From a virus (taxonomy: Duplodnaviria > Heunggongvirae > Uroviricota > Caudoviricetes): a DNA stretch of 64,000 nucleotides. The position numbers and the translations under genes are program-made. The stretch is taken from IMG/VR virus record IMGVR_UViG_3300044984_003074; one strand, given 5' to 3'. This document shows, in pieces, positions 7,745 through 57,730 of the stretch; within the stretch, counting starts at the first letter, position 1, and each line of letters starts with the position of its first letter. The notes beneath the pieces were generated by a model. The model saw only the letters and a list, made by a program, of their open reading frames with translations, had not been told where the DNA came from and did no database searches.

Positions 7745-7781
7745 AATGTAAATTTACTTATTACTCTGATAATATAAATAC

Positions 7782-9551: not shown

Positions 9552-10865
9552 TTATTTAGGCCTCGATATACCTAAACTACCCAAGAAATCATCTAAACCA
9601 TCTTCATCGTCATCGTCACCATAATCGTCTGAATCAGAACCTTCTTCTTCTTGATAATTTTCAAAGTCACTTTTTAATTGTTGTGCTTCTCTCATTATCT
9701 CTTTGAATTTTGATGTTGCTCTTTTAACTTTTGATTCGTCTTGAGAAATGGCGTTTCCAATAATTTCTAAAAATTCTTGTGCTGGTATTTGGTACAATAA
9801 TGTATGAAACCAGTTTATTAATCCTTTATTTGATTCATCGTACATTTCATCAGGTAATGCAAACCTAAGTTTTTCTACAATTTCAGGACCTATTCTAAGT
9901 TGCATTGGCTCGTTAGATAATGTATCTACCTGACCTTGAACTTTTTGTCTTAATGAAGGGTCTTTAGGTAAACCGTGTCTTCCTTTAGCTTCTTCAAGAC
10001 CTTTGATGATTTCATGACATAGGATTGGAAAAATCATACCTTCCGCAACAATTTTTGTGTCTGGTTTTTCTTCTTCACCTTCTTCTCCTTCATCGCCGTC
10101 TTCATCATCGTTATTTTTTAACTCAACTTTTCCCGCAACTCCTTGTCCTGTTTGACTCATCATTTCAATCATTTGTTCCATAGTAAAATATAGGAAATCA
10201 TTGATTGACATAATCCCCAAATAATCTCTGTAAAGAGATGGGTCAATTGCATCTAATCTTGCTTTAATATCAGGTTTTTGAAAAAGGTAATGCCCTTTTT
10301 TTGCTGCTCCCTGAATAATGGCATTAATAATATTTCTTTTGTGTTTTTCTAATTCAAGAAGTTCTTCGTCAGTTAAATCTTCAACATCAAATGATGGAAT
10401 TTCTGGTTTTTCGTCTTCTTCTTCTTCTTCGTCTTCTTCATCTTCAGGATTCATTCTAAAATTACCAGTATCAATAGGTTGTCTATTAAGTAACGCTTCA
10501 ATTTCATACCAATCAGCAGGAATTTCAGTTTCTTCTAAAGCGGCTTCTTTAGCCAACTCTTCTAACTCTTCTCTATGAGCCGCCTCAATTCTCATAATAC
10601 CAGGAAGTTTTCTCATCATTTCTTGATAAACCATTCCTTGAACTTGTTGAGAACTTAAATCATTTATTCCTGTAACCTCACTTAACTTTTCAGCAACTTT
10701 TTGAAATCTATTACTAATTAATCTTTGAACATCTTCCACACCTTTTTTCATGGCAGGATTTTGAGCGTATAAACTTTCAGGACTAGCCAATTTTCTTTCT
10801 AAGTTTGGGTCCATTCTTTCGGGTCTATCTCCGTATTCTATCTGTTCTTTAATCTTATTTGCCAT
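9552..10865 (-). CDS. hypothetical acidic protein upstream of terminase
   Basis: 437 aa, poly-E/D tracts; no recognisable small-terminase motif. Confidence 0.3.
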   Translation of the reverse strand: MANKIKEQIEYGDRPERMDPNLERKLASPESLYAQNPAMKKGVEDVQRLISNRFQKVAEKLSEVTGINDLSSQQVQGMVYQEMMRKLPGIMRIEAAHREELEELAKEAALEETEIPADWYEIEALLNRQPIDTGNFRMNPEDEEDEEEEEDEKPEIPSFDVEDLTDEELLELEKHKRNIINAIIQGAAKKGHYLFQKPDIKARLDAIDPSLYRDYLGIMSINDFLYFTMEQMIEMMSQTGQGVAGKVELKNNDDEDGDEGEEGEEEKPDTKIVAEGMIFPILCHEIIKGLEEAKGRHGLPKDPSLRQKVQGQVDTLSNEPMQLRIGPEIVEKLRFALPDEMYDESNKGLINWFHTLLYQIPAQEFLEIIGNAISQDESKVKRATSKFKEIMREAQQLKSDFENYQEEEGSDSDDYGDDDDEDGLDDFLGSLGISRPK

Positions 10866-18874: not shown

Positions 18875-19543
18875 ATGAAAGATTTGATTAAAAAAATTAT
18901 TAAAGAAACATTTGAAAATAATGAGATAAAATCTCAATCAAATCTTGATAGATTAATGAATCATTTTAAATCCCAATTTCCTGACGATTTAAAATCTAAA
19001 GTACCAATAATTGGTAAATTCATTTCAGATTATATCCAAAAAAATAATATTAATGTTAAATTTCTTAATTCTTGTTCAACAGGGTTTTCAGGTGTTAGAA
19101 CTAAGGACCAAGTTATAATTTGTTCTCCAACACAAATGTCAACTATTGGGGATTTTCTTTACACAATTTTTCACGAAATTAGACATGAGCATCAAGTTCG
19201 TGATTTAAAAATGTTAAACCCATTAACTGAATTTGACTTGGAAGATTTTGAGAATCTTGCCGACCAATATTGGGAGATGGAATTAGATGCCGACCAATTT
19301 GCAAAAAATATGGTTGCAAAAATTGTGATTAAATTAGAAATTCCAATAGATATTGCAAAAAATTTATTTTCACTTTCCCTATTTATTGAAAAATATCCTT
19401 TAATGTCTAAAATGGTCAGAGGTCATTTACAACAAATTGTTAACGGAATTAAAGACATAAAAAAATCGGGAGGAGAATATGAAGATATTCAAGACCACCC
19501 GATGGTTAAACGATATATTGATAAGTTAGAAAATTTTATCTAA
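18875..19543 (+). CDS. hypothetical protein with HExxH (HEIRH) motif
   Basis: 222 aa; possible zinc metallopeptidase. Confidence 0.25.
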   Translation: MKDLIKKIIKETFENNEIKSQSNLDRLMNHFKSQFPDDLKSKVPIIGKFISDYIQKNNINVKFLNSCSTGFSGVRTKDQVIICSPTQMSTIGDFLYTIFHEIRHEHQVRDLKMLNPLTEFDLEDFENLADQYWEMELDADQFAKNMVAKIVIKLEIPIDIAKNLFSLSLFIEKYPLMSKMVRGHLQQIVNGIKDIKKSGGEYEDIQDHPMVKRYIDKLENFI

Positions 19544-25917: not shown

Positions 25918-25959
25918 GAACTATACTGATATGTCAATTTTTCTTACATATTTTTTCTG

Positions 25960-26044
25960 CGGAAAATGAGAGACTCGAACTCTCGCATCATTTTATCGAT
26001 GTACGGTTTAGCAAACCGCTGCATTACCACTCTGCCAACCTTCC
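25960..26044 (-). tRNA. tRNA-Ser (anticodon GCU), type II
   Basis: GGAAGGTTGGCAGAGTGG...loop TTGCTAA, long variable arm, T-arm GAGAGTTCGAGTCTCTC. Confidence 0.7.
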
Positions 26045-26049
26045 TTATA

Positions 26050-26394
26050 TTATATTAGGTGTAGTAAGATATATGACAATTTATATCCTGTAAAAGCGCC
26101 CAATGCGGATGGTATTGGGAATACAATTAATTTACCTAAATCAGTTACGTATTTTGGTCTATTTACAATTTTACCCATAAAAAAGTAATATATTAAATAA
26201 CCCATTAAAACCGCAATATCTGTACGTGTTGCAATAAAAACTACTAAAGTGGCCCCTAAGAACCCAAAAGTAAAATTATCCCTTACACCTTCCCAAACTT
26301 CTTTAGTTGATGCACTTTTATATTCTTTTACAATCTTTTTGAATTGGGCTTTATGCCCCTTTTTCTTTTTTTCTATTATTTCTGTTGTTTCCAT
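26050..26394 (-). CDS. hypothetical membrane protein
   Basis: 114 aa, two TM segments. Confidence 0.3.
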   Translation of the reverse strand: METTEIIEKKKKGHKAQFKKIVKEYKSASTKEVWEGVRDNFTFGFLGATLVVFIATRTDIAVLMGYLIYYFFMGKIVNRPKYVTDLGKLIVFPIPSALGAFTGYKLSYILLHLI

Positions 26395-26395
26395 G

Positions 26396-26470
26396 TTGGA
26401 ATAGATGGACTCGAACCATCGACTTTCACCGTATCAGGATGACACTCTAACCAACTGAGTTATATTCCAT
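26396..26470 (-). tRNA. tRNA-Ile (anticodon GAU)
   Basis: D-arm CTCAGTTGGTTAGAG, loop CTGATAC, T-arm GATGGTTCGAGTCCATC. Confidence 0.65.
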
Positions 26471-26561
26471 TATTATTTTTACAAAGATAGTTAATTTATC
26501 CCATAAAAAAAATCCCCCTGACTTTTAATCAGAGGGATTTAGTATTTAAATCTCTTCTATA

Positions 26562-27140
26562 TTAAAAGTATGTTTGTTCAAAGTATAATACTTGGAACTT
26601 ATCTTTACTATCAATTAAACTCAATGCATTAATTAAGTCGTTATACTCAACTACGGCACCTTTTTGAATTTTTCTAAATTTAGTTAAAACATCAAATGTT
26701 GTAATATCATCAGAAAATACTGTTTGTGAATCTTTGTTATATGCTTTCATTAATGCCAATTCCATTTCATAAGCTCCATTAATAATTTCTTCCAAACTAT
26801 TGAAAGTATGACTAATTTTTGCTGATGGGATTTCAGGGATAATATTGAAATCGGTCATATATTGTTGTAAAATCTCAGAATGACCTAATTCATCTTTTGC
26901 CTCATTTTCAAAAAACGCTGCCGCTTTTTTGTAGTTCATATCCGCACACCAGTTAGTTGCCGCTCTGTAATAATAATGTGCAGTATATTCGTCTTTGATT
27001 CTATCAGTTAAGATTTTAATTGTCTTATCTGATAACGAGTATAATTTAGGTGACTTTGTTAAACCTGGTTTGTTTTCCGCCTCATTCAAGTGCATCACTT
27101 TAAATAATTGTTCCTTTGTTAATGTTAATTTCTTTTCCAT
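26562..27140 (-). CDS. ferritin-like protein (start at internal Met; ORF-track N-terminus is read-through of tRNA-His)
   Basis: EYTAHYYYRAA ... NEAKDELGHSEIL ... ferritin ExxH/di-iron motifs; 5' part of listed ORF 26562..27287 overlaps tRNA gene. Confidence 0.5.
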   Translation of the reverse strand: MEKKLTLTKEQLFKVMHLNEAENKPGLTKSPKLYSLSDKTIKILTDRIKDEYTAHYYYRAATNWCADMNYKKAAAFFENEAKDELGHSEILQQYMTDFNIIPEIPSAKISHTFNSLEEIINGAYEMELALMKAYNKDSQTVFSDDITTFDVLTKFRKIQKGAVVEYNDLINALSLIDSKDKFQVLYFEQTYF

Positions 27141-27176
27141 ACTAATAAATAGTCGGTATAGATGAAAAATATTAGG

Positions 27177-27249
27177 GTGACTAACGGGAATCGAACCCGT
27201 GACAACTTGGACCACAACCAAGCGCTCTACCAACTGAGCTATAGCCACC
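27177..27249 (-). tRNA. tRNA-His (anticodon GUG)
   Basis: GGTGGCTATAGCTCAGTTGGTAGAGC, loop TTGTGGT, discriminator C. Confidence 0.75.
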
Positions 27250-27254
27250 ATATG

Positions 27255-27324
27255 TTGCGTGTTTGGGTTTCGAACCCAATTGACCATCCTTATGAGAGAT
27301 AGTTCTTTTCCTCTAAGTCACGCA
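27255..27324 (-). tRNA. tRNA with CAU anticodon (Met/fMet/Ile2), short atypical D-arm
   Basis: acceptor TGCGTGA/ACACGCA, AC stem TATCT/GGATG loop CTCATAA, T-arm TTGGGTTCGAAACCCAA. Confidence 0.45.
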
Positions 27325-27330
27325 GTTTAG

Positions 27331-27403
27331 AGGTTCTATTAGGATTCGAACCTAAACTCCGAATTCCGTAGATTCGTGTGCTAATCCGTTACACCATAAA
27401 ACC
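27331..27403 (-). tRNA. tRNA-Arg (anticodon ACG)
   Basis: AC stem CGAAT/ATTCG loop CTACGGA; T-arm TTAGGTTCGAATCCTAA. Confidence 0.7.
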
Positions 27404-27485
27404 CTAATTACCGATTATTGTCCCATTTAACAATTATCATCAAAACAATCCACAAAATTAAAAACCACATACTTTATTTATTTAG

Positions 27486-27556
27486 TTACCCGACCAAGAC
27501 TCGAACTTGGAACGACTGTACCAAAAACAGTTGTGTTACCATTACACCATCGGGCA
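27486..27556 (-). tRNA. tRNA-Gln (anticodon UUG)
   Basis: AC stem ACTGT/ACAGT loop TTTTGGT; T-arm CCAAGTTCGAGTCTTGG. Confidence 0.7.
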
Positions 27557-27562
27557 ATACTG

Positions 27563-27636
27563 TGGACCATCCAGGACTCGAACCTGGGACCTTCTCGTTA
27601 TGAGCGAGCTACTCTAACCGACTGAGTTAAAGGTCC
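27563..27636 (-). tRNA. tRNA-Met (anticodon CAU)
   Basis: D-arm CTCAGTCGGTTAGAG, loop CTCATAA, T-arm CCAGGTTCGAGTCCTGG. Confidence 0.65.
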
Positions 27637-27786
27637 AAAATTGACTACTACCTGACTCCTTTCGAACTTTGCAGGCTCGTATCATTCAATAATAGTAGTC
27701 CAAGGCGTTACGCACCCATCTGATAACTTTACTTCTCTTGAGTCCGGATAAGCGCTTACCAACTCAGGGGTTGTTTCCTTGTTTGT

Positions 27787-27866
27787 GGGAGTGGAGGGAT
27801 TCGAACCCCCAATGTCGTAGACCACAGATTTACAGTCTGCTAAGCGACCAATTGCTCAACACTCCC
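27787..27866 (-). tRNA. tRNA-Tyr (anticodon GUA), long variable arm
   Basis: GGGAGTGTTGAGCAATTGG..., loop CTGTAAA, T-arm TGGGGGTTCGAATCCCTCC. Confidence 0.7.
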
Positions 27867-28168
27867 AATTATAAAACAGACAATGAGGATTCTCCGATAT
27901 TTCAGTCTTAGGGGACTAGACGGGCATCATACCCGTGTTTACCCTCGGCGGTCTCTTGGTTTGGTTGATTACTCCGAACCTCACCCCTACACTACCACTG
28001 ACGTAAGTTATAGGTCTGTCTTAATTCTTTTAGGAAAACAGAAGATGGTTGCGTGGACATCTGTTTTTACGATTAGCGTTACTTAGGTGAATACCTCCCA
28101 ACTCCGATTGTACTAGCCGGCATTCACTCTCGAACTATTAGTACAATCATTCCCCAATCAACCTTTTG
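27867..28168 (-). ncRNA. GC-rich structured non-tRNA segment inside tRNA array (stable RNA or intron-like)
   Basis: ~300 nt at ~50% GC vs ~33% genome; multiple hairpins (CGGGCATCATACCCG; GTGAAT/ATTCAC); no convincing ORF (listed 67-aa ORF rejected). Confidence 0.35.
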
Positions 28169-28249
28169 CACGCTTGGAGGGATTCGAACCCCCACCAACG
28201 GTGTTGGAGACCGTGATGCTACCGTTGCACTACAAACGTATTTATTTAC
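28169..28249 (-). tRNA. tRNA-Trp (anticodon CCA)
   Basis: AC stem ACGGT/ACCGT loop CTCCAAC; T-arm GGGGGTTCGAATCCCTC. Confidence 0.7.
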
Positions 28250-28253
28250 TGCT

Positions 28254-28297
28254 CAAATTTAAGAGTATTTACTGCTCAAATTTAAGATTTTTGAGGT
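28254..28297. repeat. 2x tandem direct repeat of 21-23 bp (ATTTACTGCTCAAATTTAAGA) between tRNA-Trp and tRNA-Cys
   Basis: copies at 28254-28274 and 28277-28297. Confidence 0.8.
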
Positions 28298-28303
28298 CGG
28301 TAC

Positions 28304-28376
28304 AGGATTTGAACCTGTGTGAATAGTTTTGCAGACTACCGCCTAAGCCACTCGGCCAACCGACCCTATCTAATTT
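28304..28376 (-). tRNA. tRNA-Cys (anticodon GCA)
   Basis: GGTCGGTTGGCCGAGTGGCTTAGGC, loop CTGCAAA, T-arm ACAGGTTCAAATCCTGT. Confidence 0.7.
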
Positions 28377-28746
28377 AAAGAACTTCAGTTAGTATTCTCC
28401 ATTCTTTTAATGTGTTTCCTTCAAAGGTAACCTCAACCGGTTTCCCTTTTAATTTATCCACAGAGTCAACCTTAGCTTCCTTCAGTAAAGTCGAAACATA
28501 TCTCATAATCTCAGAATACCATCCATCCCTATCTTCTTCAGACCATTGGGTGTGTTCCGTCCATTTTATTTGTTCTGAATCCCAATTGGCTCTTGAATCA
28601 CCAACACCCCAACTTCCACCACTTAATGTGACGTGAAGACCTAACATTGCTCCTTGATATCCACCAAGACCAAAACTTACCGACTCAATTTTCCCTAATT
28701 TCTTTTCCATATTCTTTAATTTTAATATCCTTAAGGGCTTCCTCAA
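28375..28746 (-). CDS. hypothetical protein
   Basis: 123 aa ORF (start may be internal Met at ~28710). Confidence 0.3.
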   Translation of the reverse strand: MRKPLRILKLKNMEKKLGKIESVSFGLGGYQGAMLGLHVTLSGGSWGVGDSRANWDSEQIKWTEHTQWSEEDRDGWYSEIMRYVSTLLKEAKVDSVDKLKGKPVEVTFEGNTLKEWRILTEVL

Positions 28747-28845
28747 TTTGTTTTCCTAACCATTCTTTCCACTCGTCAAAGGTAAACTTTGAATTTGGAT
28801 TCTCCAAGAGAAAGTTTTTATATTGTGTTTCTAATGTTGCCATAA

Positions 28846-29445
28846 TTAATCTAAACTATTTGGGTAATATAATAATGTTGGGTTCTTCTTTTGGATATCA
28901 ATTTCAGGATATCTATCACTAAATGATTTGACATCAAATCGAGATGTAATTAAATGTCTACCATTTTTGGTAGGTATTACTTTTTCAACCTTAAATCCAA
29001 TTGGTCTAAGGTCTTTAATAAAATCGGCGACTTCATATAAAAAATCAGGGTCAGTAGTATCAATATCAACAATCCATCTTTTTTCTTTAGTCTTTATTTG
29101 ACCAACAACTGAATCAAATAACCCTTTTTGGTTTTGAACCCCATTCTTAATTCTTTCCGCCAAATTTGACAACATATCCAAAGAAACATCTTTATGATTT
29201 TGTTTTTGAATATGAATATAAGCTCTTGCTTTAAACATTTCACAAAGTTGTTTTACCTCATCGTACCTTCTTTCCAAATGGTCAATTGAATCAATACAAT
29301 ATGTTTTAATTGTTCTAACCGATTGATGATTATCTCTTTCATTTTCAGGTTGGTCTTTCTTACGTTTAAACACATACAACATATAGAAATCACCCTTTTC
29401 TTCAAAGTTTAACAACGGTTTTATTATCTCTAAATTATCTATCAT
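28846..29445 (-). CDS. hypothetical protein
   Basis: 199 aa ORF. Confidence 0.3.
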   Translation of the reverse strand: MIDNLEIIKPLLNFEEKGDFYMLYVFKRKKDQPENERDNHQSVRTIKTYCIDSIDHLERRYDEVKQLCEMFKARAYIHIQKQNHKDVSLDMLSNLAERIKNGVQNQKGLFDSVVGQIKTKEKRWIVDIDTTDPDFLYEVADFIKDLRPIGFKVEKVIPTKNGRHLITSRFDVKSFSDRYPEIDIQKKNPTLLYYPNSLD

Positions 29446-29998
29446 ATCTTTTTATTTTTTTATACTGTAAATTTGAAATAATTAGTTCCATCAAAATCAA
29501 ATTCCGCAATTACATCATTAGTTCCCCAAACAAACCTAATATAAGAACTAATGTTGGAATAAAGATTACCTGAATTTCCAGGAAATTGGATTATAATTTT
29601 TCTCAATTTTCCAACAACAATGTTATTAATTCCAGGTTCCCCATAAATGTTTTTAACTTCAGTGGTAATTCTAACCCCACTATAATAAATTGGGTTTTGA
29701 TGTTTTAATATTTTTCGGAAATAATCAATCTCTTTCATTTTAATATCCTATTTCTTTTTTAACTTCCCATTGTTTATCGATAGGAATTCTTTCAATTCTT
29801 TCAACAGGTACAAACCCGTCAAACCCTTTATCTTTAACATCCTCAAAATGTTCTATGGTATCCAATTGGAACCCGAACTTATATCGGATGTATTGGAACT
29901 TTTCTCCGTCCCAATATGCCATGTGGTTGTTCCTACAAAATCCATTGTACCAACCTTCAACCATTTCATTTTTTGGTATCATAATTTCTATTTTTTTG

Positions 29999-30072
29999 TG
30001 ACCCCTCCGAGACTCGAACTCGGGACTCCTTCATTAAAAGTGAAGTGCTCTAGCCAACTGAGCTAAGAGGTC
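29999..30072 (-). tRNA. tRNA-Lys (anticodon UUU)
   Basis: GACCTCTTAGCTCAGTTGGCTAGAGC, loop CTTTTAA, T-arm CCGAGTTCGAGTCTCGG. Confidence 0.75.
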
Positions 30073-30476
30073 TTTTTTTCGTTCAATCATTTCTGACTGT
30101 CCCCAATACCGAATTTCAGCGGCAACCCACTTACGTGAGGGGTTAGAACTTGTGTGTTAACTTACTCCTGTTAATGGTACACTAACCAACCGACTTAGAC
30201 TCAAGTAATCGGCTCAGGTCCCCATGGTTGTAAAACCACTTCTCATCGTTCGGGAGCAAACTAGTCGTATACTACTCGACTCGTGTAGTCGACACGGGAC
30301 TCGAACCCGCACAAGGCAACCTTACAACTCCATAGTCAACACAAGTGTCTGTGACTATTGGTCTTGGGGGTTTGGGACCTTCCCTCATTACACAGTCGAC
30401 TAACAACCCCACTTCACCAGGTTAATGGACTGGCTGCCATATGGGAGTGGGGGTTTCCCGTTAATTCGGGACTCCG
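30073..30476 (-). ncRNA. ~400-nt GC-rich structured segment including a 118-nt tRNA-like minihelix (8-bp acceptor around a GTCGAC palindrome + canonical T-arm, no canonical anticodon arm)
   Basis: minihelix approx 30286-30403: 5' TAGTCGAC ... GCGGGTTCGAGTCCCGT GTCGACTA 3'; remaining sequence forms many hairpins; no ORF support. Confidence 0.35.
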
Positions 30477-30549
30477 TGGTAACGGTCAGAATCGAACTGA
30501 CGACACCTTGTTCTTCAAACAAGTGCTCTACCGACTGAGCTACGTTACC
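30477..30549 (-). tRNA. tRNA-Phe (anticodon GAA)
   Basis: GGTAACGTAGCTCAGTCGGTAGAGC, loop TTGAAGA, T-arm GTCAGTTCGATTCTGAC. Confidence 0.75.
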
Positions 30550-30697
30550 AAATAAAGATAATGATGGAGTACCCGTCTCGCTCCAATCTTAACTGCTTTC
30601 CTGAGTTTTATGAGGCCTCGGCAGAAAGGGTGATGAACTATTGCTCCATTCGGAATTGTCGACATTCCATTGAATGGTTAGAACCATTATCTTAGTA

Positions 30698-30770
30698 GTT
30701 CCTGTAGGATTCGAACCTACGACTGCTTGCATGTAAGGCAAGAACTCTTCCACTGAGCTAAGGAACTGTA
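30698..30770 (-). tRNA. tRNA-Val (anticodon UAC)
   Basis: GTTCCTTAGCTCAGTGGAAGAGT, loop CTTACAT, T-arm GTAGGTTCGAATCCTAC. Confidence 0.7.
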
Positions 30771-30774
30771 TTGT

Positions 30775-30846
30775 AGCCCTGCCGGGAGTCGAACCCGACT
30801 TTCCAGGATGAAAACCTGGCGACCTAACCGATAGTCGACAGGGCCA
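30775..30846 (-). tRNA. tRNA-Glu (anticodon UUC)
   Basis: AC stem CCAGG/CCTGG loop TTTTCAT; T-arm TCGGGTTCGACTCCCGG. Confidence 0.65.
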
Positions 30847-30908
30847 TAAATAAATCTTTTACAAAGATACAATCAATATTTCAAAGAGCAAAAGATTATA
30901 GAATAAAA

Positions 30909-30940
30909 AAACCCCGAACCTTAATTAAAAGTTCGGGGTC
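30909..30940 (-). terminator. hairpin CCCCGAAC...GTTCGGGG with T-run on minus strand
   Basis: perfect 8-bp stem; T8 run on minus strand. Confidence 0.5.
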
Positions 30941-31130
30941 TGATATGATATAAATTTATATTATTATCCTACGATTACATCCGAACTACATAGCAGCATA
31001 CGCTCATACCAACAAACTATTTGTTGTTTACTAAAGACCATATGTTGTATTGTAGTTTTCATTGTTTCTATAATTATATCAAAGATAGTCAAAATCTTCA
31101 ATTTGTCAAATATTATTTTTTTTTGTACCC

Positions 31131-31203
31131 CAAGAGAGACTCGAACTCTCAAAATCTTGTATCTAAAACAAGCGTGTCTGCCATTCCACCATCGGGGCAT
31201 ATA
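31131..31203 (-). tRNA. tRNA with UAG anticodon (Leu-reading) but short type-I variable arm
   Basis: AC stem CTTGT/ACAAG loop TTTAGAT; T-arm GAGAGTTCGAGTCTCTC; D-stem weak. Confidence 0.45.
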
Positions 31204-31297
31204 TCACATCGTACAGGCATTCTGGTTCTCGCCAACAGAAATTCCATCTTACTTAGCCCACCCTGTGCGATAGGGGTACCTGAGGATATGATAATTG

Positions 31298-31371
31298 TGA
31301 TTCGGATAGGATTCGAACCTATGACCCCAAATTTAGAAGATTTGTGCTCTATCCAGCTGAGCTACCGAACC
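31298..31371 (-). tRNA. tRNA-Arg (anticodon UCU)
   Basis: GGTTCGGTAGCTCAGCTGGATAGAGC, loop CTTCTAA, T-arm ATAGGTTCGAATCCTAT. Confidence 0.75.
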
Positions 31372-31589
31372 ATTTTCCACCAATGAGATTATTTTGGTGT
31401 AGATATCTACAGTTTTCCTATTCAAAACCCATCGCGTCTTACCGCTTAAAAGTCAACCATATACTCGGAGGTCAAGATGGTTCTCTTGCCGTTTTTCCGA
31501 CGACTCCCTCTGTAAAACCGTTTGGAGTACCAGCTACATCATTGTTTAAGTAACGATGCCAAATCTATTGAGTATCTCTATCTCAATCG

Positions 31590-31669
31590 TAGTCAGGACA
31601 GGACTCGAACCTGTAATTCCGGTTAAACCCCTCAACGGGGCCGCGTCTATCCAATTCCGCCACCCGACT
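31590..31669 (-). tRNA. type-II (Leu/Ser-like) tRNA, anticodon arm non-canonical (reads UGA by alignment)
   Basis: D-arm TGGCGGAATTGGATAGACGC (Leu-like), T-arm ACAGGTTCGAGTCCTGT; anticodon region GCCCCGTTGAGGGG forms 5-nt loop. Confidence 0.45.
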
Positions 31670-31808
31670 ATTTTAAAATTCAATTGTGGACTTCCATTTC
31701 CACTCCGATAACTGTTGTCAATGTGATTTGTGCTATTGTACTTCTAGCTTAGACACATCGGGACGCACCATAAACATATGTCAGGGTCTTGTCTTTAATT
31801 GAATTTAG

Positions 31809-31908
31809 TAGTCAGGACAGGACTCGAACCTGTGAGGATATTTAAACTTCAGCAATGATAAAGTACCTTAAAGCGTCTACCAATTCCGCCACCTAACTAT
31901 TTTGAGGT
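31809..31908 (-). tRNA. paralogous type-II tRNA-like gene, 100 nt, aberrant/extended anticodon region (possible pseudo-tRNA or small intron)
   Basis: same acceptor/D/T arms as 31590-31669 but ~20 nt longer; no canonical 7-nt loop. Confidence 0.35.
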
Positions 31909-32253
31909 TGAGAACTCCTCGTGTTGTGCAAATATAGACATAAATCTTTTCAAAATTTATAATCTCACCCGACTATTTCATTCCTATCTCACAGGAACAA
32001 CACATTTTACTTCCACTGAGTTTTTCGGTTATACTTCCAAGTTTTATGTTCTCTGTATTTGTGAGAAAATTGTCCTTTTCTGTAATGAACACCCTCATCC
32101 CAATAAGAAGGGTATTCAAACTTTAACCAAATCAATCTGTAATCTTTTGAACAAGTTGCCTTCTTCAATTTCATTCTGTTTGTATTCACACTCATAATCT
32201 TGAGTCTGTTGTTTAGCAGACCTCAAAGATTATCAAATACCTTTTTCATAATT

Positions 32254-32334
32254 TTAAATTTTGTATCGAGAGAGGGAGTCGAACCCTCACGCCTTATGGC
32301 AAGGAGTCTTAAGCCCCTCGTGTCTACCATTTCA
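32254..32334 (-). tRNA. tRNA-Leu (anticodon UAA), type II
   Basis: AC stem AGGGG/CTCCT loop CTTAAGA, long variable arm, T-arm GAGGGTTCGACTCCCTC. Confidence 0.7.
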
Positions 32335-32534
32335 CCACCTCGATATTTCTTCTACAAAGATAGTAAAATCTTTGATATAACCATAAAAAAACCCCAAACT
32401 TTTCAGTTCAGGGTTAAGTCTCTATAAATAGAATGGCTCTGAACAAATTACCGCATAAGTCTTCTTAACAGACCTTGTCTATTAAGTAATAATGTATGTA
32501 ATAATATTGTTCTCATTGTTTTTATAAATATATC

Positions 32535-33251
32535 TTATTCTGTAAAACTTTCTTCATATAAAGTATTACTATCGTTTGATTCAATATTGTCAGTATGGTC
32601 TAATGTAACAATTTTATTATTAAAGTCAAATATAAATTGACCATCAGACCCTTCATTGTTTTCCCAACCACCAAAATTTGTTGAAAGTTGAGTGTAACAC
32701 CAATCTTCAATTCCCGCAGGTACCGCACTACCATTTTGGTCAAATCTATCTTCCAAATATCCTGAATCTCCAGACCCATTATATGTTACGGTTAAAATAC
32801 CATCATTTGGTATTTCAACATCGGAAAACTCGTTTCCTTCCCATCGTTTAAATTTTTCAATGTCTTCATCAGAATCGAACTCAATCGAACTTCCATCACC
32901 TCTTTCATAAAAAGACCACCATTTACTAAACACGATTTTTTTATCTTTTACATCAATATCAAACTCAACTCTTTGGTAATTAATCATATCCATATCAAGG
33001 TGCTCAAAATTGTTTTGATTATCAACATAGTTAACAATCTTTTGAAGTATTGGAATTAATCCTGATGGGATATCCGCTCTATAATTGTTTGAAAAATGGG
33101 TTATTTCATCCCAATCAATATCGTTGGGGTCAAATACTGAATAACTATCAATATCAAACTCAATATTACCATCATACATCCCTAATGAATTAAGATAATT
33201 GGTAACTCTTCGTAAATATTTTTTTTCTTCTGGTGTTAAAATTCCTTTCAT
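32535..33251 (-). CDS. hypothetical protein
   Basis: 238 aa ORF. Confidence 0.3.
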   Translation of the reverse strand: MKGILTPEEKKYLRRVTNYLNSLGMYDGNIEFDIDSYSVFDPNDIDWDEITHFSNNYRADIPSGLIPILQKIVNYVDNQNNFEHLDMDMINYQRVEFDIDVKDKKIVFSKWWSFYERGDGSSIEFDSDEDIEKFKRWEGNEFSDVEIPNDGILTVTYNGSGDSGYLEDRFDQNGSAVPAGIEDWCYTQLSTNFGGWENNEGSDGQFIFDFNNKIVTLDHTDNIESNDSNTLYEESFTE

Positions 33252-33267
33252 AAACTATAAATATCCT

Positions 33268-33615
33268 TTAATCATCTATTTTTAATGTTCTTAACATCCA
33301 TTGTGGTCGTTTATTCTCGGAAAGGTTATTAACCCACTCTTTGGCCGATGGGATATAGTTATTACAGTCTTCTTTTACATGTTGTTCACCAACATATCTT
33401 GTGTAAACTATTTTACCATCACTATTGGTGAATTCCGTACCAAATCTTTTTTCCATTTCAAAAATCCCTTCACTATGATGTCTAAACATTCTGTGGAGTG
33501 AGTCACCAAACCAAGATTTGGTTTCATCTAACCATTCGTGTAAATGGATATAATCTTCAGGTTTTCCACCAAATTTCTTAGCGGATGATTTTGCATGTAA
33601 ATTTGGATGTGCCAT
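33268..33615 (-). CDS. hypothetical protein
   Basis: 115 aa ORF. Confidence 0.3.
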   Translation of the reverse strand: MAHPNLHAKSSAKKFGGKPEDYIHLHEWLDETKSWFGDSLHRMFRHHSEGIFEMEKRFGTEFTNSDGKIVYTRYVGEQHVKEDCNNYIPSAKEWVNNLSENKRPQWMLRTLKIDD

Positions 33616-33628
33616 AGTTTTATTTTTG

Positions 33629-33703
33629 TGGAGCTAGTGAGAATCGAACTCACCTCAGAGACATTGCAAGTGTTTCTCGCCAAGCCTTGGAACATGTAAC
33701 CCC
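33629..33703 (-). tRNA. tRNA-Ala (anticodon UGC)
   Basis: acceptor GGGGTTA/TAGCTCC with G3:U70, loop CTTGCAA, T-arm GTGAGTTCGATTCTCAC. Confidence 0.55.
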
Positions 33704-33710
33704 TTATTTG

Positions 33711-33783
33711 AGCCTCCTGTCGGAATCGAACCAACGACATCAACATTACAAATGTTGCGCTCTACCTGCTGAGCTAAGGAGGC
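33711..33783 (-). tRNA. tRNA-Thr (anticodon UGU)
   Basis: GCCTCCTTAGCTCAGCAGGTAGAGC, loop TTTGTAA, T-arm GTTGGTTCGATTCCGAC. Confidence 0.75.
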
Positions 33784-33842
33784 GTTTGTGGGTATATGCT
33801 CATCACATATTCTTGGGTTCCCACACACCCCTTGAGCAGATA

Positions 33843-33914
33843 GACGGAATCGAACCGTCGTCTCCAGATTGGAAGTCTGGAGTAATAACCCCTATACGAT
33901 ATCTGCATTTGGCG
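33843..33914 (-). tRNA. tRNA-Gly (anticodon UCC)
   Basis: AC stem CCAGA/TCTGG loop CTTCCAA; T-arm GACGGTTCGATTCCGTC. Confidence 0.7.
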
Positions 33915-33917
33915 GTC

Positions 33918-33993
33918 CCGACGGGATTCGAACCCGTACCTCACACCGTGACAGGGTGGAATTGTAACCATTCAACCACGGGACCAAAATTTC
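33918..33993 (-). tRNA. tRNA-Asp (anticodon GUC), CCA encoded
   Basis: GGTCCCGTGGTTGAATGG, loop CTGTCAC, T-arm TACGGGTTCGAATCCCGT, 3' GCCA. Confidence 0.7.
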
Positions 33994-34107
33994 AATTCAA
34001 AGGTGACAATCCTATAACAATTGAATGAGAAAGAACCGTGTTTCTCGGGTAGTGACTTCCCGTATTCTGTCTTTCTGTTTTTTATGGGGAGTCTCAACCC
34101 AATCTTT

Positions 34108-34596
34108 TTAGTTAACTAATATGTCCTTATGTTCTTCGATTACTCGTTTTAAACTACTGACATATCTTTTGTCTTGTGCGTATATTTTACCAAGTAACGC
34201 AAGGTACTCTTTTTTTGTCAAATCATTCTTGTTTTTTAACATATAATTCTGCCATAAGGAGTAATCATACACACTAAACACCCAATCTTCATAACTTGAA
34301 TACCCACTTTTGGTTTGACCGTTTGCGGATGACTCTCGTTTTTTTGGTATTCTCATACCAAATAGATTGTTCGCTGATTTGAACAATTTGGAAGTAAATT
34401 GACCTGATTCTAATACCGCTTGTGCGAATACCACATCAGGAAATTTAATTCCGTGATTAATTATCTGCTCATACAAATTTTGTCTTGTGATACTATTTTC
34501 AATAGTTGTTTCACTTTGTAATTGCTTCTCTTGTGCTTTGATTGTTAATGTTCCTAACAATAACAATCCAGTCAATAAGAATGTTTTTAACTTCAT
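34108..34596 (-). CDS. secreted GH73-family N-acetylglucosaminidase (FlgJ-like) peptidoglycan hydrolase
   Basis: 162 aa; N-terminal signal peptide; VFAQAVLESGQFTSKLFKSANNLFGM GH73 motif. Confidence 0.6.
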   Translation of the reverse strand: MKLKTFLLTGLLLLGTLTIKAQEKQLQSETTIENSITRQNLYEQIINHGIKFPDVVFAQAVLESGQFTSKLFKSANNLFGMRIPKKRESSANGQTKSGYSSYEDWVFSVYDYSLWQNYMLKNKNDLTKKEYLALLGKIYAQDKRYVSSLKRVIEEHKDILVN

Positions 34597-34667
34597 TTCT
34601 TTCTTTTTGTCTGTTTATGCTTCAGGATTACTCCATCCACGATACCACAACATTGGAAATTTTCCAC

Positions 34668-35228
34668 CTACCCCACTTGTAATAATTCAACTAAACCGTC
34701 GTGTATTTCAGAATGACAATTAGAACATACTAATATACATTTGTCTACCTCGTCTTTTAGTTTTTCAAAACTAACACTTTTTCCTGAAATTGAAAAGTCT
34801 TTTTCTTCAGGATTGAGATGATGAAATTGTAAAGCTCTGTTACATTTTTTATATCCACATAATTCACATTCACCACCCTTATAGTCAATTAATTTTTGTT
34901 TTGTTCGTTTTCTCCATTCAATAACTGCTTCAGTTTTTGAAACTGTTTTATTTTTATTTGTTGTTACAACATATTTTAAAACAGTGTTAATTGCATGTCC
35001 TTTTAATTTTGCAATTTTTTTAACAGAACCAATTTCATCATAAAGTTTTTGTAATTCTAATTTTTGTTCATCTGTCAATCTATCACTATGACCACCCATT
35101 TTATTGAGTTTACAGTGATATGATACTGTTGAAATTGCACAATGTAATTCTTTACAAATTTCTTTATAGGTTTTACCCTGATTTCTTAATTCTATTATTT
35201 TTTCGAAGTATTTACTCATTATTAACAT
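34668..35228 (-). mobile_element. HNH homing endonuclease with N-terminal HTH domains
   Basis: 186 aa; C-terminal HHLNPEEKDF...CILVCSNCHSEIH HNH motif. Confidence 0.6.
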
Positions 35229-35269
35229 TATTAGTTAATAATAACTATCACAAATATTCGAAAAGTAAA

Positions 35270-35354
35270 GCTGACACGGTAGGATTCGAACCTACGTCGG
35301 ATTTTACTCACCAGATTAACAGTCTGGACCATTCGACCTCTATGGCAACATGTC
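35270..35354 (-). tRNA. tRNA-Asn-like (anticodon GUU) with unusually long variable region
   Basis: AC stem CCAGA/TCTGG loop CTGTTAA; T-arm GTAGGTTCGAATCCTAC; 15-nt variable. Confidence 0.5.
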
Positions 35355-35360
35355 AATAAT

Positions 35361-35433
35361 GTCGGGGTGGCAGAAATCGAATCTGCTCGATGTCCTGGTC
35401 CCAAACCAGGCGACTAACCTTTAGTCCACACCC
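35361..35433 (-). tRNA. tRNA-Pro (anticodon UGG)
   Basis: CGGGGTGTGGACTAAAGGTTAGTC, loop TTTGGGA, T-arm GCAGATTCGATTTCTGC. Confidence 0.75.
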
Positions 35434-35448
35434 CGTAATAAATAAAAA

Positions 35449-49836: not shown

Positions 49837-50268
49837 ATGGGTATGGAGTTATTAAATACACACCCGATTAAAAAATCGGATTTAGGATTTCATGGAAATT
49901 TGTTTGGTGGAAAACTACTCGCATGGATTGATGCCGCTGCTGCGGGGTATTCTATGCAATTATGTGATACACCAAGAATGGTTACAGTTTCAATAGATAA
50001 ATGTTATTTTGAAAAACCAGCTAAAGAAGGACAATTACTTAAAATATATGGTAGACCTTCTAAATTGGGTATCACCTCTGTAACATTATACATGGAGGCG
50101 AGAGCACATAATGTTTACACGAGTAATCAAGTAATTGTCTTAAAAACTAATATACGATTTGTTCGTATTGACGAAGAAGGAAATCCAATACCAATCAATG
50201 AAAAAGGTAGAAAAAAAATAGAATTATTAATTGAAGATTATTTGAAAACTAACGAAATACAAAATTAG
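49837..50268 (+). CDS. acyl-CoA thioesterase (hotdog fold)
   Basis: 143 aa; HGNLFGGKLLAWIDAAAA. Confidence 0.5.
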   Translation: MGMELLNTHPIKKSDLGFHGNLFGGKLLAWIDAAAAGYSMQLCDTPRMVTVSIDKCYFEKPAKEGQLLKIYGRPSKLGITSVTLYMEARAHNVYTSNQVIVLKTNIRFVRIDEEGNPIPINEKGRKKIELLIEDYLKTNEIQN

Positions 50269-50274
50269 GATAAG

Positions 50275-50676
50275 ATGAAAAAAAATACACGAATAGCGGT
50301 AATTGCTCACGACGGGAAAAAAGCGGATATGGTTGCCTTTATTATGAAGAGATTAGATTTCTTTAGAGAGGTTGATGTTATGGCGACAGGTACAACTGGA
50401 AAACATATTGAACACGCAGGACTTGATGTAAATTGTCTTAAATCAGGTCCTTTAGGTGGTGACGCACAAATTGCTTCGTTAATATCTGATGGTGAAATAG
50501 ACGCTGTTATATTTTTTATTGACCCACTAGGTCTTCATCCCCATCAGGTAGATGTGAATATGTTATTACGAATTTGTAATGTTTATAATATACCATTGGC
50601 AACAAATTATTCCACAGCGTCTTTATTAATAAGCGGACTAAAAAAAATTAAAACACATACAGATGACATACGATGA
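50275..50676 (+). CDS. mgsA: methylglyoxal synthase
   Basis: 133 aa; IAVIAHDGKK...ATGTTG...GPLGGDAQI...IFFIDPLGLHPHQVD. Confidence 0.65.
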   Translation: MKKNTRIAVIAHDGKKADMVAFIMKRLDFFREVDVMATGTTGKHIEHAGLDVNCLKSGPLGGDAQIASLISDGEIDAVIFFIDPLGLHPHQVDVNMLLRICNVYNIPLATNYSTASLLISGLKKIKTHTDDIR

Positions 50677-51244
50677 ATTAGAAATTTGGCAATCAGTCCA
50701 ATACAGAATGGATGAAGAAGGTTTTGACTACTGCTTTGAAAGTTATTCCAATTGGGATGAAATTGAAGATGAGGAATTTCACAGATTAAGATTAGGATTC
50801 TTACAATCTATGAAAGAACTTCGTGAATACATTGATAGTAAAGTTGAAGAAGGTGAAAATTTTGAATTAGATGGGGGGTTTGACGAAGAATAATGGGTGG
50901 ATTATATGAATTAATTGATTTGGGTATTGCTCAGGGATTGGGTGTCTCAGTAGAAACTTACATTGATATAATTGAAAAATGTACTGAAGAAGAAGCGGAA
51001 TTTATTATTAACACCATTTTTGATGAAGATGTTGAAAATTTAGATAAAGCAAAGGAAACATTTAACAAATATTTGAATGAGTAATCCACAAACCGACGAT
51101 GAATTGTGGGACTATTACAGTGGGTTACCAAATCCAATGTGGTATCAACATATTGAAGGAATAAAAGATGAGGAAGAAAATACAAGTGATAGTGATGATA
51201 CTGAAATTACTACTGAATAAAATAAAACGAAAAAGAAAAAGTAT

Positions 51245-52669
51245 TTGGGATTTATGAACAATATAGATAAAAAATATCAAGAGCTATTACAAGACATCTT
51301 GGATAATGGAACCCCTAAATCTGACCGTACTGGTACAGGAACAATCTCAGTATTCGGAAGACAAATCCGTCACAATATGAAAGATGGGTTTCCTTTACTC
51401 ACCACCAAAAAAATGCCGTGGAAAACAATCGTAACAGAATTACTTTGGTTCCTTAGAGGTGATACAAATATTAAGTATTTAATTGAAAATGGTTGTCATA
51501 TTTGGACAGGAGATGCTAAAAAAAGATATGATGAAAACTATTCAAAGTACTGGACTGCAGGAAACAATTCACCAAAGTTTGCTAATATTTCTACTAAAGA
51601 ATTTGAAAAACGAATTATAAATAGTGATGAGTTTGCTAACAAGTGGGGTGAATTAGGGCCAATTTATGGTAAGCAATGGAGAAATTGGGGTGGATGGACA
51701 GATACCAAACAAACGGGTTTTTTACACAAAACTGATAATGGTTGGACTATTAAGTGGAGTGATTTACATTCATTTGCTAATGGTACTGAGTGGTTAACAA
51801 CACCGATACAGGATTCTGACCAATCTCTTTACAGTGATGAAGATGAAGGTAAAAAAGTTTACTATAAAAACATAACACTTGGTTATAATGAATCTTTTTG
51901 CCCAGTTCAAGTTGCTAAAGTAATTGATGATAAATTTGACAAATATATTGGTGGGAAAGACCAAATCCAAAACCTAATCAACGACCTTAAAACAAATCCA
52001 GACTCAAGACGATTAATGGTTAATGCTTGGAATGTTGGAGAATTAGACCAAATGGTTCTTCCACCTTGTCATTATGGATTTCAAGTTTATACAAGAGAGT
52101 TGAGTTTAGAAGAAAGAAAAAAATTAGCTAATTATGATTCTGAATTTGTATCACCTATGACGGTTGAATCTTGGGATAGAAGTAACATCCCAACCAGAGC
52201 AATCTCGTTAATGTGGAATCAACGTTCAGTAGATACATTCTTAGGTTTACCATTCAACATTGCTTCATATGGTTTATTATTAGAAATAATTGCAAAAGAA
52301 GTTAATATGGTTCCTGAAGAGTTGATTGGAAATCTAGGAGATGTTCATTTATATTCAAATCATATTGAACAAGCAAAAGAACAGATTGGAAGAAAATACA
52401 CTCACGAAGAAAGAACAGAATTGTTAAAACAAGCGATGGGTGAAGAAAATTATAATAAAGCGGTTGATGAATTAATGCCGTTTGGTGGTGGATTAAGTGA
52501 ATATTATGATTCATATAAAATTCCTTATAAAACAAGAGAACCTTATCGATTACCAACATTAGTAATGGTTACTAACCCCGATTTAAAGTTTGATGAATAT
52601 GTTTATGATAATTTAAAACTTGTAAACTATCAATCACATCCAACAATTAAAGCACCTTTAAGCAATTAA
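51245..52669 (+). CDS. thyA: thymidylate synthase (ThyA) with large insertions
   Basis: 474 aa; SDRTGTGT, PLLTTKK, PPCHYGFQVY (catalytic Cys), NQRSVD, DVHLY; ~190 aa longer than canonical ThyA. Confidence 0.8.
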   Translation: MGFMNNIDKKYQELLQDILDNGTPKSDRTGTGTISVFGRQIRHNMKDGFPLLTTKKMPWKTIVTELLWFLRGDTNIKYLIENGCHIWTGDAKKRYDENYSKYWTAGNNSPKFANISTKEFEKRIINSDEFANKWGELGPIYGKQWRNWGGWTDTKQTGFLHKTDNGWTIKWSDLHSFANGTEWLTTPIQDSDQSLYSDEDEGKKVYYKNITLGYNESFCPVQVAKVIDDKFDKYIGGKDQIQNLINDLKTNPDSRRLMVNAWNVGELDQMVLPPCHYGFQVYTRELSLEERKKLANYDSEFVSPMTVESWDRSNIPTRAISLMWNQRSVDTFLGLPFNIASYGLLLEIIAKEVNMVPEELIGNLGDVHLYSNHIEQAKEQIGRKYTHEERTELLKQAMGEENYNKAVDELMPFGGGLSEYYDSYKIPYKTREPYRLPTLVMVTNPDLKFDEYVYDNLKLVNYQSHPTIKAPLSN

Positions 52670-53492: not shown

Positions 53493-54038
53493 TTGGATAT
53501 TAAATTAGATATGAAAAGTCCATTAACCGGAAAAGAAATGAAACTAATGTCGGAACCATCCACATTAAATTACAGAGGAAAACAATACAATGTGAATCAT
53601 CACTTCTACCTATGTGAATTATCAAACGAACAATTCACGACAACAGAATTAGATGAACAAAATTTACAAGAACTTAACAAACAAGTTAAACTTGAGTTTA
53701 GTGATATTAGACCATGGGGATTTTACGAAATCTTATTAGACACCGATTATACTAAGGTAAAACAAATTACGGTAAATCCAGGTCAAAAATTATCATACCA
53801 ATATCATGAAAAAAGAAAAGAATATTGGACAATCGTTAAAGGTTCTGCAACAATAATTTTGAATGATGAAAAAGTGTTTAGAAATCAAGGAGAATCAATT
53901 CACATTCCTTTAGGTTCAAAACATAGAATAATTAACGAAAGTGATGAAATATTAATTTTTATCGAAGTTCAAACAGGAGAATCTTTTGACGAAGAAGATA
54001 TTATAAGACTTGAAGATGATTATGGTAGACAGGATTAA
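53493..54038 (+). CDS. cupin-domain protein, mannose-6-phosphate isomerase type II C-terminal-like, with N-terminal Cys/His cluster
   Basis: 181 aa; RPWGFYEIL...NPGQKLSYQYHEKRKEYWTIVKG...IPLGSKHRIIN...IEVQTG. Confidence 0.5.
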   Translation: MDIKLDMKSPLTGKEMKLMSEPSTLNYRGKQYNVNHHFYLCELSNEQFTTTELDEQNLQELNKQVKLEFSDIRPWGFYEILLDTDYTKVKQITVNPGQKLSYQYHEKRKEYWTIVKGSATIILNDEKVFRNQGESIHIPLGSKHRIINESDEILIFIEVQTGESFDEEDIIRLEDDYGRQD

Positions 54039-57489: not shown

Positions 57490-57577
57490 GGAAAGATGGC
57501 AGAGTTGGCCGATTGCGTCAGTCTTGAAAACTGAAGACCTCGTAAGGGGTCCGTGGGTTCGAATCCTACTCTTTCCG
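57490..57577 (+). tRNA. tRNA-Ser (anticodon UGA), type II, plus strand, isolated from main array
   Basis: GGAAAGATGGCAGAGTTGGCCGATTGCG, loop CTTGAAA, long variable arm, T-arm GTGGGTTCGAATCCTAC. Confidence 0.75.
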
Positions 57578-57730
57578 CAAAATCAATAGTGCTGTACGCG
57601 ACAGAGACAAAAGACAGGAGTGAAAGAGCTGTCCCTATTGATTTAAAACAAAAATACCTCATAGAAATATGGGGTATTTTTTTTGACTAATAATTTTATT
57701 TAAATTATATTTTTAAAAAAATTAAAACCT

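Follow-up and report, generated by a model that had tools for sequence, protein, structure and literature searches.

Methylglyoxal synthase (MGS; MgsA, EC 4.2.3.3) catalyzes the first step of a glycolytic bypass in which inorganic phosphate (Pi) is released; the enzyme has been assigned a role when phosphate is deficient, Pi inhibits it allosterically, and the purpose of the bypass is not well understood (PMC4133812). We analyzed a gene of this family in a viral genome, an open reading frame (ORF) at positions 50275..50676 (+) of a 64,000-nucleotide stretch of Caudoviricetes DNA (IMG/VR record IMGVR_UViG_3300044984_003074; the window, meaning this whole stretch). Bacterial MgsA proteins, including those of E. 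coli (1B93, 1EGH, and 1IK4) and Thermus (2X8W, 2XW6, and 1WO8) and that of PDB entry 6F2C, belong to the same single-domain length class as window MGS and align with it end to end. They share with it, without change, the catalytic base Asp, both His residues, the TGTTG phosphate loop, SGP, and the DPL...PH..D motif, and the Thermus and Bacteroidota enzymes further share with window MGS a short form that lacks the C-terminal Arg helix. Window MGS differs in being phage-encoded and in belonging to a separate, phage-only clade with invariant substitutions of its own.

The presence of mgsA on viral contigs has been listed in three surveys, of the Lake Baikal virome (PMC8066274), of a brine pool (preprint 10.1101/2024.01.25.577265), and of plastisphere viromes (PMC12397222). 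These report the same kind of observation as ours, in the form of a KEGG mgsA call; they file the gene under propanoate or methane metabolism and give no active-site check, phylogeny, selection analysis, genomic context, or functional proposal. In Lake Baikal, a 120-kb mgsA-bearing T4-like scaffold was dominant in one oligotrophic virome sample (V1), where it drew up to 8.8% of the sample reads (PMC8066274). Compared by description, this freshwater scaffold fits the phage group seen here. Our literature search found no paper that studies phage MgsA.

Some phage auxiliary metabolic genes (AMGs) reroute the central carbon or phosphate metabolism of the host, among them cyanophage talC, cp12, pstS, and phoA/phoH. 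By analogy, the gene in the window would follow the same logic, that of a host-derived single-enzyme gene maintained by purifying selection in large aquatic phages of the T4-like kind, where it plausibly shifts host metabolism in favor of nucleotide synthesis when nutrients are limiting. The cyanophage genes encode other enzymes and catalyze other reactions, whereas the product of MGS is a toxic electrophile and the hosts are apparently Bacteroidota. Among cultured phages, the nearest relative found is the Flavobacterium phage vB_FspM_immuto (Immutovirus; hereafter immuto), and it is distant. Immuto has a large genome with tRNAs and a T4-type terminase 29% identical in amino acid sequence to that of the window, and it shares with the window a long thymidylate synthase (ThyA), a thioesterase, and several genes at 40%–65% amino acid identity; of its genes that we tested, 7/23 have window counterparts that are 40%–68% identical. 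It differs in having no MGS, with no Flavobacterium phage appearing among the tblastn matches. What is new here is thus an uncharacterized member, encoded by a phage, of an enzyme family that is well known, the enzyme itself being ordinary. It is notable for its toxic product and for how broad and how conserved the phage clade is; no question of long standing depends on it.

The mgsA reading frame and its active site

The mgsA ORF is intact, starts with ATG, has AGGA a few bases 5' of the start, and encodes 133 amino acids. An earlier interpretation of this DNA, made from the letters and a list of ORFs without database searches (the sequence-only reading), had proposed a full-length MgsA-like ORF at exactly this position, and each of the four motifs it quoted can be located in the protein: ATGTTG (residues 37–42), GPLGGD (58–63), FFIDPL (80–85), and PHQVD (89–93). 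Family searches placed the protein far above chance. Window MGS scores 168.7 bits against the NCBIfam equivalog NF003559 (cut-off 84) and 155.7 bits against the equivalog TIGR00160 (cut-off 146.9), and it matches the Pfam family MGS (PF02142) at E = 1.7e-15. Eleven distinct solved MgsA sequences from the PDB align to residues 5–125, with E values from 1e-28 to 1e-32. The protein consists of a single MGS-fold domain of normal MgsA length, and in a pairwise alignment it is 47% identical to E. coli MgsA over 113 aligned residues.

We mapped window residues onto the E. coli MgsA sequence, in a register that agrees with the PDB 1b93 alignment, and took residue roles from PMC7843640. E. coli His19, Asp20, and Lys23, which contact the substrate O3 and phosphate, correspond to His12, Asp13, and Lys16 within the block His12-Asp13-Gly14-Lys15-Lys16 (codons at 50308..50322, +). 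The phosphate-binding loop, Thr45–Gly49 in E. coli, is present as Thr38-Gly-Thr-Thr-Gly42 (50386..50400, +). E. coli Ser65-Gly66-Pro67 and the catalytic base Asp71 map to Ser57-Gly58-Pro59 and Asp63, respectively, in the block Ser57-Gly58-Pro59-Leu-Gly-Gly-Asp63 (50443..50463, +), in which Asp63 is encoded by GAC at 50461–50463. Asp91-Pro92 is matched by Asp83-Pro84, and His98 and Asp101 by His90 and Asp93 of the block His90-Gln91-Val92-Asp93 (50542..50553, +), where Gln91 and Val92 are specific to the phage clade and stand in place of bacterial Glu/Asp and Pro. None of the catalytic and phosphate-binding residues varies among 19 diverse viral copies. The sequence-only reading had named substitution of the catalytic Asp and His as the sign of a non-catalytic homolog; Asp63, His90, His12, and Asp93 are all kept, and because every role-assigned residue has a counterpart, no such sign is present.

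Window MGS ends approximately 8 residues past the last aligned core position and is without the C-terminal helix that in E. coli carries Arg150, the partner of Asp20 in an inter-subunit salt bridge. The characterized Thermus MgsA likewise has no Arg150 helix (PMC4133812), which is a feature of long-form, E. coli-type allostery and does not define the family. A second proposed allosteric path in the E. coli enzyme runs through P92, R107, and V111 (PMC4133812), and these residues are retained in window MGS as P84, R99, and V103. From these sequence comparisons, we consider it very probable that the ORF encodes a catalytically competent MgsA, which would convert dihydroxyacetone phosphate (DHAP) irreversibly to methylglyoxal and Pi and form the usual hexameric oligomer.

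The phage proteins also carry residues of their own. Our bacterial comparison set consisted of Genome Taxonomy Database (GTDB) species representatives picked via two peptide patterns, a choice that inflates the apparent shared conservation at residues 12–20. Relative to this set, the phage clade shows invariant or near-invariant replacements at M24-K25-R26 (the end of helix 1), H47, I70, and Y112. Others surround the active-site loop, where Ile82 stands for Arg, Val/Leu87 for Lys, Gln91 for Glu/Asp, Val92 for Pro, and Asn102 for Asp. Codons for these clade-specific residues lie, among other places, at 50344–50352, 50518–50520, 50545–50550, and 50578–50580 (+). The pair equivalent to Arg82 and Glu91 forms a salt bridge, R81-E90 in O. 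profundus and R79-E88 in C. difficile, that has been discussed as stabilizing (PMC7843640), and its joint loss is the main unexplained feature of the phage clade.

Distribution and descent of the phage copies

Relatives of window MGS are encoded by 166 viral stretches in IMG/VR. We compared 86 viral loci, comprising the best 80 of these 166 together with six close relatives of the window (L081–L086). The best 80 are 60%–97% identical to window MGS and lie on contigs of up to 299 kb; all viral copies are intact ORFs of 123–146 amino acids, bar one that is cut by a contig end. GC content is 32% in the window and 29%–37% across all viral loci. A protein identical to window MGS (P0001) occurs on 49 metagenome contigs, with the same phage neighbors in all six places examined, at least two of them from freshwater samples.

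Across the 86 loci, MGS occupies at least 12 local gene contexts, and a search for a universally conserved neighbor found none, an arrangement that argues for a stand-alone function. ThyA (cluster 10) is found a few kb or less from MGS in approximately 20 loci and a ClpP-like gene lies near it in 17, and in one (L074), MGS is flanked directly by a Clp ATPase on one side and a bona fide ClpP on the other (5992–9043). In another lineage (L043–L078, approximately 32 loci), MGS is the sole plus-strand gene amid minus-strand structural genes (for example, at 8001–8384 of L057), with the major head protein (phrog_138) approximately 2 kb away and the prohead protease nearby. This moron-like arrangement implies separate expression.

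Cultured phages present a different picture. PHROGs v4 holds no family matching MGS, and a protein search of INPHARED returned 22 matches of at most 53% identity, none of them (0/22) on an annotated phage genome. The longest match, MT835478.1 ("UNVERIFIED: Bacteriophage sp.," 102 kb), was examined as a candidate mgsA-bearing phage and rejected, as the region around mgsA (77173–95541), with mreB, mreC, PBP2, minC, minD, rodA, mgsA, and a D-Ala-D-Ala carboxypeptidase, is bacterial chromosome; mgsA matches in phage databases are therefore not to be taken at face value. The other 21 records carry no annotation and are mostly short fragments, and we assumed that the short Listeria and Enterococcus "phage" fragments are host DNA. 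There is thus no verified isolated phage with an MGS gene, and the gene is essentially absent from cultured phages. The description of phage mgsA as unusual in the sequence-only reading accordingly holds for cultured phages but not for uncultured low-GC phages, among which the gene is common and of which several come from freshwater samples.

To place the phage copies among cellular ones, we scanned GTDB and built a neighbor-joining tree. Among the matches listed, Bacteroidota came first (Cryomorphaceae, Saprospiraceae, Lewinellaceae, Cyclobacteriaceae, and Sphingobacterium), with identities to window MGS of 64% or less, and the best bacterial identity of the phage clade as a whole was approximately 66%, again to Bacteroidota. 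The peptide patterns behind the bacterial set could have missed a closer donor. In the tree, the phage core clade is monophyletic in 96/100 bootstraps and nests among Bacteroidota MgsA; with L074, L079, and a contig from a metagenome-assembled genome (MAG; L094) included, support for the phage clade is 82/100. This contig, NZWA01000013.1 (1–9258 examined), belongs to the MAG "Flavobacteriales bacterium NAT55"; it is 22 kb long, with 31% GC, short ORFs, and an ATP-dependent DNA ligase adjoining MGS, and its MGS nests in the phage clade beside that of L079. Given the GC content and the adjacent ligase, L094 is probably a piece of phage DNA that was binned with a bacterial genome.

Pairwise Nei-Gojobori estimates of the ratio of nonsynonymous to synonymous substitution (dN/dS) among phage MGS genes reach at most 0.29, with a median of 0.12. 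In 121 of the 231 pairs, synonymous sites have become saturated, and the proteins are still 60%–80% identical. Low dN/dS, combined with saturation at this level of protein identity, indicates long-term purifying selection on the phage genes rather than recent spread. An ancestor of these phages may have acquired mgsA once, from a Bacteroidota-like host, with the gene then being kept as a stand-alone AMG. The window host is probably a member of the Bacteroidota; separately, a protein with a CHU_C type-IX-secretion domain in L079 points to the same phylum.

By its location in a phage genome, its recurrence, its purifying selection, and its cellular outgroup, the window gene is, at the level of sequence, a phage AMG. 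The suggestion of the sequence-only reading that this is a phage-encoded, catalytically intact MgsA acting as an AMG is borne out to the extent that both equivalog cut-offs are passed, the active site is complete, and the context is that of a phage.

Possible roles during infection

MGS is an odd choice for a virus, given that it makes a broadly toxic electrophile in a pathway that is wasteful of ATP; still, it is conserved in many uncultured large phages. The role we favor, argued by analogy with established MgsA physiology, is a phosphate-recycling glycolytic bypass that would operate during phage DNA synthesis. In phosphate-poor water, phage DNA synthesis would drain free phosphate; at low Pi, glyceraldehyde-3-phosphate dehydrogenase (GAPDH) would stall and triose phosphates would accumulate. 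The phage enzyme would then turn host DHAP irreversibly into methylglyoxal and Pi, thereby freeing Pi trapped in triose phosphates for nucleotide synthesis and relieving the block at GAPDH. Carbon would continue from methylglyoxal via D-lactate to pyruvate through host detoxification enzymes, and the toxicity of methylglyoxal might be tolerated, or even be useful, in a doomed cell. We count in favor of such a role the position of MGS among nucleotide-metabolism genes such as ThyA in the window, the freshwater origin of several carriers, and the dominance of the Baikal scaffold in an oligotrophic sample.

Several points weigh against this account. No phosphate-stress gene (phoH or pstS) was seen in the approximately 54 kb of the window with readable precomputed Pfam matches on identical contigs. 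Compared with the phosphate needed for a 130–270 kb genome, the triose-phosphate pool is small, and so any benefit must come from flux and not from the amount stored. Guanine and proteins are damaged by methylglyoxal, which would strike phage DNA as well, and neither a glyoxalase nor any other gene for detoxification was found close to MGS. In the lineage L043–L078, MGS sits in a structural, presumably late, module and not with DNA-synthesis genes. The phage clade has lost both members of the Arg/Glu pair (R to I82 and E to Q91) along with other charged residues near the active-site loop, the pattern-chosen bacterial set leaves room for a closer donor, and both catalysis and the bypass are deduced from the family and from MgsA physiology. 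On balance, we regard the bypass itself as possible but tentative, with the weight of judgment lying somewhat against it. Taken as a whole, a competent MgsA that was acquired once, kept as a stand-alone AMG, and used for phosphate recycling is the best explanation we can offer, and we would place it only a little short of an even chance.

Should the enzyme be active, these phages would control a branch point between energy-yielding glycolysis and a phosphate-releasing bypass, and viruses would have a new route for reshaping carbon and phosphorus flow in phosphorus-limited lakes. Phage MgsA, a protein of 133 amino acids for which standard assays are available, could also bear on the purpose of the methylglyoxal bypass in general.

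Methylglyoxal itself could instead be the point. As a host-shutoff agent or toxic-electrophile weapon, it might arrest host growth, deplete low-molecular-weight thiols, damage host DNA and protein, or poison superinfecting phages or neighboring competitors. The sequence-only reading had likewise suggested that a phage copy could harm host macromolecules, affect superinfection, or redirect the overflow of host triose phosphates. The evidence for an active enzyme serves this proposal equally well, and at millimolar concentrations methylglyoxal is mutagenic and disturbs cellular processes (PMC7843640). The lineage in which MGS is a lone opposite-strand insertion within the structural module, as a moron would be, also fits, and the loss of several charged residues around the active-site loop could mean altered regulation. 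Yet methylglyoxal is unselective and would harm phage DNA and proteins in the same cytoplasm, and in the window lineage MGS has nucleotide-synthesis genes around it, whose use depends on a working cell. No partner that would protect against methylglyoxal or detoxify it is linked to MGS, and PADLOC returned no defense-family match for MGS or its neighbors. The residues of one allosteric pathway are retained, and hence there is no positive sign of deregulation. We consider a role as a weapon unlikely.

A related proposal joins toxicity to phosphate supply. It holds that a phage-specific MgsA clade with altered regulation has spread through many large freshwater Bacteroidota phage lineages, where it would strip phosphate from host triose phosphates, and possibly also from glycerol-3-phosphate derived from phospholipids, and flood the cell with methylglyoxal. 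Altered regulation is suggested by the loss of conserved charged residues around the active-site loop together with the remodeling of helix 1. If this were so, host shutoff would be coupled to the supply of phosphate for phage DNA, and infected cells would be a source of methylglyoxal or D-lactate in lakes. Judged from sequence features of the clade, this too seems doubtful, to much the same degree.

The clade-specific invariant replacements (M24-K25-R26, H47, Y112, I82, V/L87, Q91, V92, and N102) could also be read as marks of a diverged or non-catalytic protein whose fold was kept to catalyze a different reaction or to serve in binding or regulation, in the manner of the MGS-like domains of carbamoyl-phosphate synthetase and PurH; the Pfam family is indeed defined generally, as an "MGS-like domain." However, scores against the equivalog hidden Markov models exceed their curated cut-offs, all catalytic and phosphate-binding residues are invariant, and the protein has one domain and the length usual for MgsA. 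The lost Arg/Glu pair, moreover, has been discussed as a salt bridge for stability and not as a catalytic element (PMC7843640). Such divergence or loss of catalysis is, in our estimation, improbable.

MGS might also act as a pair with the gene immediately upstream, which encodes a hotdog-fold (4HBT) thioesterase of 143 amino acids (49837..50268, +; PF03061, 56.1 bits against a gathering threshold of 20.6; phrog_18230 at 4.7e-23). Such a pair might serve a lipid or thioester pathway, either by glyoxalase-II-like hydrolysis of an S-lactoyl thioester or by diverting phospholipid precursors (acyl-CoA or acyl carrier protein thioesters and glycerol-3-phosphate/DHAP) to phosphate and CoA. The two genes are co-directional and 6 nucleotides apart in the window, the pair is kept in the close relatives L081–L086, and a reversed order, ThyA-MGS-4HBT, is found in L007 and L012. 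The nearest solved relatives of the thioesterase are acyl-CoA hydrolases (1vpm at 4.6e-14, and ACOT12). The sequence-only reading called this neighbor an acyl-CoA thioesterase, a name that stands for the hotdog/4HBT superfamily but no further, because the protein scores 32.5 bits against the YciA equivalog NF007970, far under the cut-off of 162. Across the loci, 4HBT lies within 8–10 kb of MGS in only 7/86, in two small sub-lineages, and it is missing beside MGS in L001 and L002, whose MGS is 97% identical to that of the window. Immuto carries a 68% identical protein (immuto26A_50, "hydrolase/thioesterase") 300 bp downstream of ThyA, with nothing MGS-like between them. From these three observations, the adjacency is best read as regional synteny and not as an obligate partnership, and a joint pathway appears very improbable.

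Lastly, the notion that mgsA is an artefact, either a bacterial gene brought in by wrong assembly or classification of the contig or a part of the host chromosome next to a prophage, could draw on the chromosomal nature of MT835478.1, on the fragmentary state of the remaining INPHARED matches, and on the "bacterial" MAG contig nested inside the phage clade, but it is effectively refuted by tens of kb of phage genes on both flanks in the window, on the same strand and of the same GC content, by the independent assembly of an identical arrangement from several samples, and by the distinctness of the phage clade, whose members are at most approximately 66% identical to genome copies among the matches listed.

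The phage genome around mgsA

Genes from approximately 43.3 to 54.0 kb of the window are co-directional and tightly packed, and MGS, beyond its 6-nucleotide gap upstream, overlaps the next gene downstream by 14 nucleotides. The sequence-only reading placed MGS inside an early-gene operon, for which this run is a candidate. A scan for sigma-70 promoters and terminators over 42.5–55 kb found 68 promoter-like sites against 69.7 expected from shuffled sequence, and hence no enrichment, Bacteroidota-type promoters being outside its coverage. The overlapping gene (50663..50893, +) encodes 76 amino acids and matches phrog_17752 at 1.4e-11; its cluster (c19) is present in 16 loci and is among the commoner immediate neighbors of MGS, restricted to some lineages.

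Elsewhere, the window encodes a T4-type portal (Portal_T4; 5888–7744) and a large terminase (Terminase_6N; 7782–9542). No cultured phage has a terminase more than 30% identical to this one. The window further encodes a T4 RnlA-like RNA ligase, an SPFH protein, ThyA, a cupin, and, downstream of MGS, a GH19 endolysin. Immuto carries 7-deazaguanine DNA-modification genes, a possible means of protecting phage DNA; genes like these were sought in the window, and none were found. The cupin, which resembles the C-terminal domain of mannose-6-phosphate isomerase, lies 3 kb downstream of MGS (53493–54038, +) and recurs near MGS in L003–L006 (80%–84% identity) and in L079 (approximately 10013–10360; 52%).

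The window holds 23 tRNA genes. Twenty-two of them, covering most amino acids and with small ORFs between them, form a bank at 25959–35435 (−), and one further tRNA-Ser lies at 57490–57578 (+). The Gln-ttg tRNA is present twice, with one copy of 81 nucleotides. A ferritin/rubrerythrin-family gene lies within the tRNA region (approximately 26562–27140, −; a precomputed Pfam match on an identical contig). At 16817–18829 (+), the window encodes a ClpA/ClpB-like two-domain AAA+ unfoldase of 670 amino acids (phrog_4871, 792 bits), followed by a 222-amino-acid ORF without a Pfam match (18875–19543, +).

ThyA (51245..52669, +; Pfam PF00303, 289 bits) carries large insertions that bring it to 474 amino acids, as compared with approximately 265–280 for canonical ThyA. 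Although it is 51% identical to immuto ThyA at the protein level, a 146-nucleotide stretch around the active-site PPCH, in the region 51958–52130, is 96.6% identical in DNA sequence between the two. Within that stretch, 90%–94% of the identical residues use identical codons, as against 40%–70% elsewhere in the gene, which suggests either nucleotide-level constraint or local recombination.

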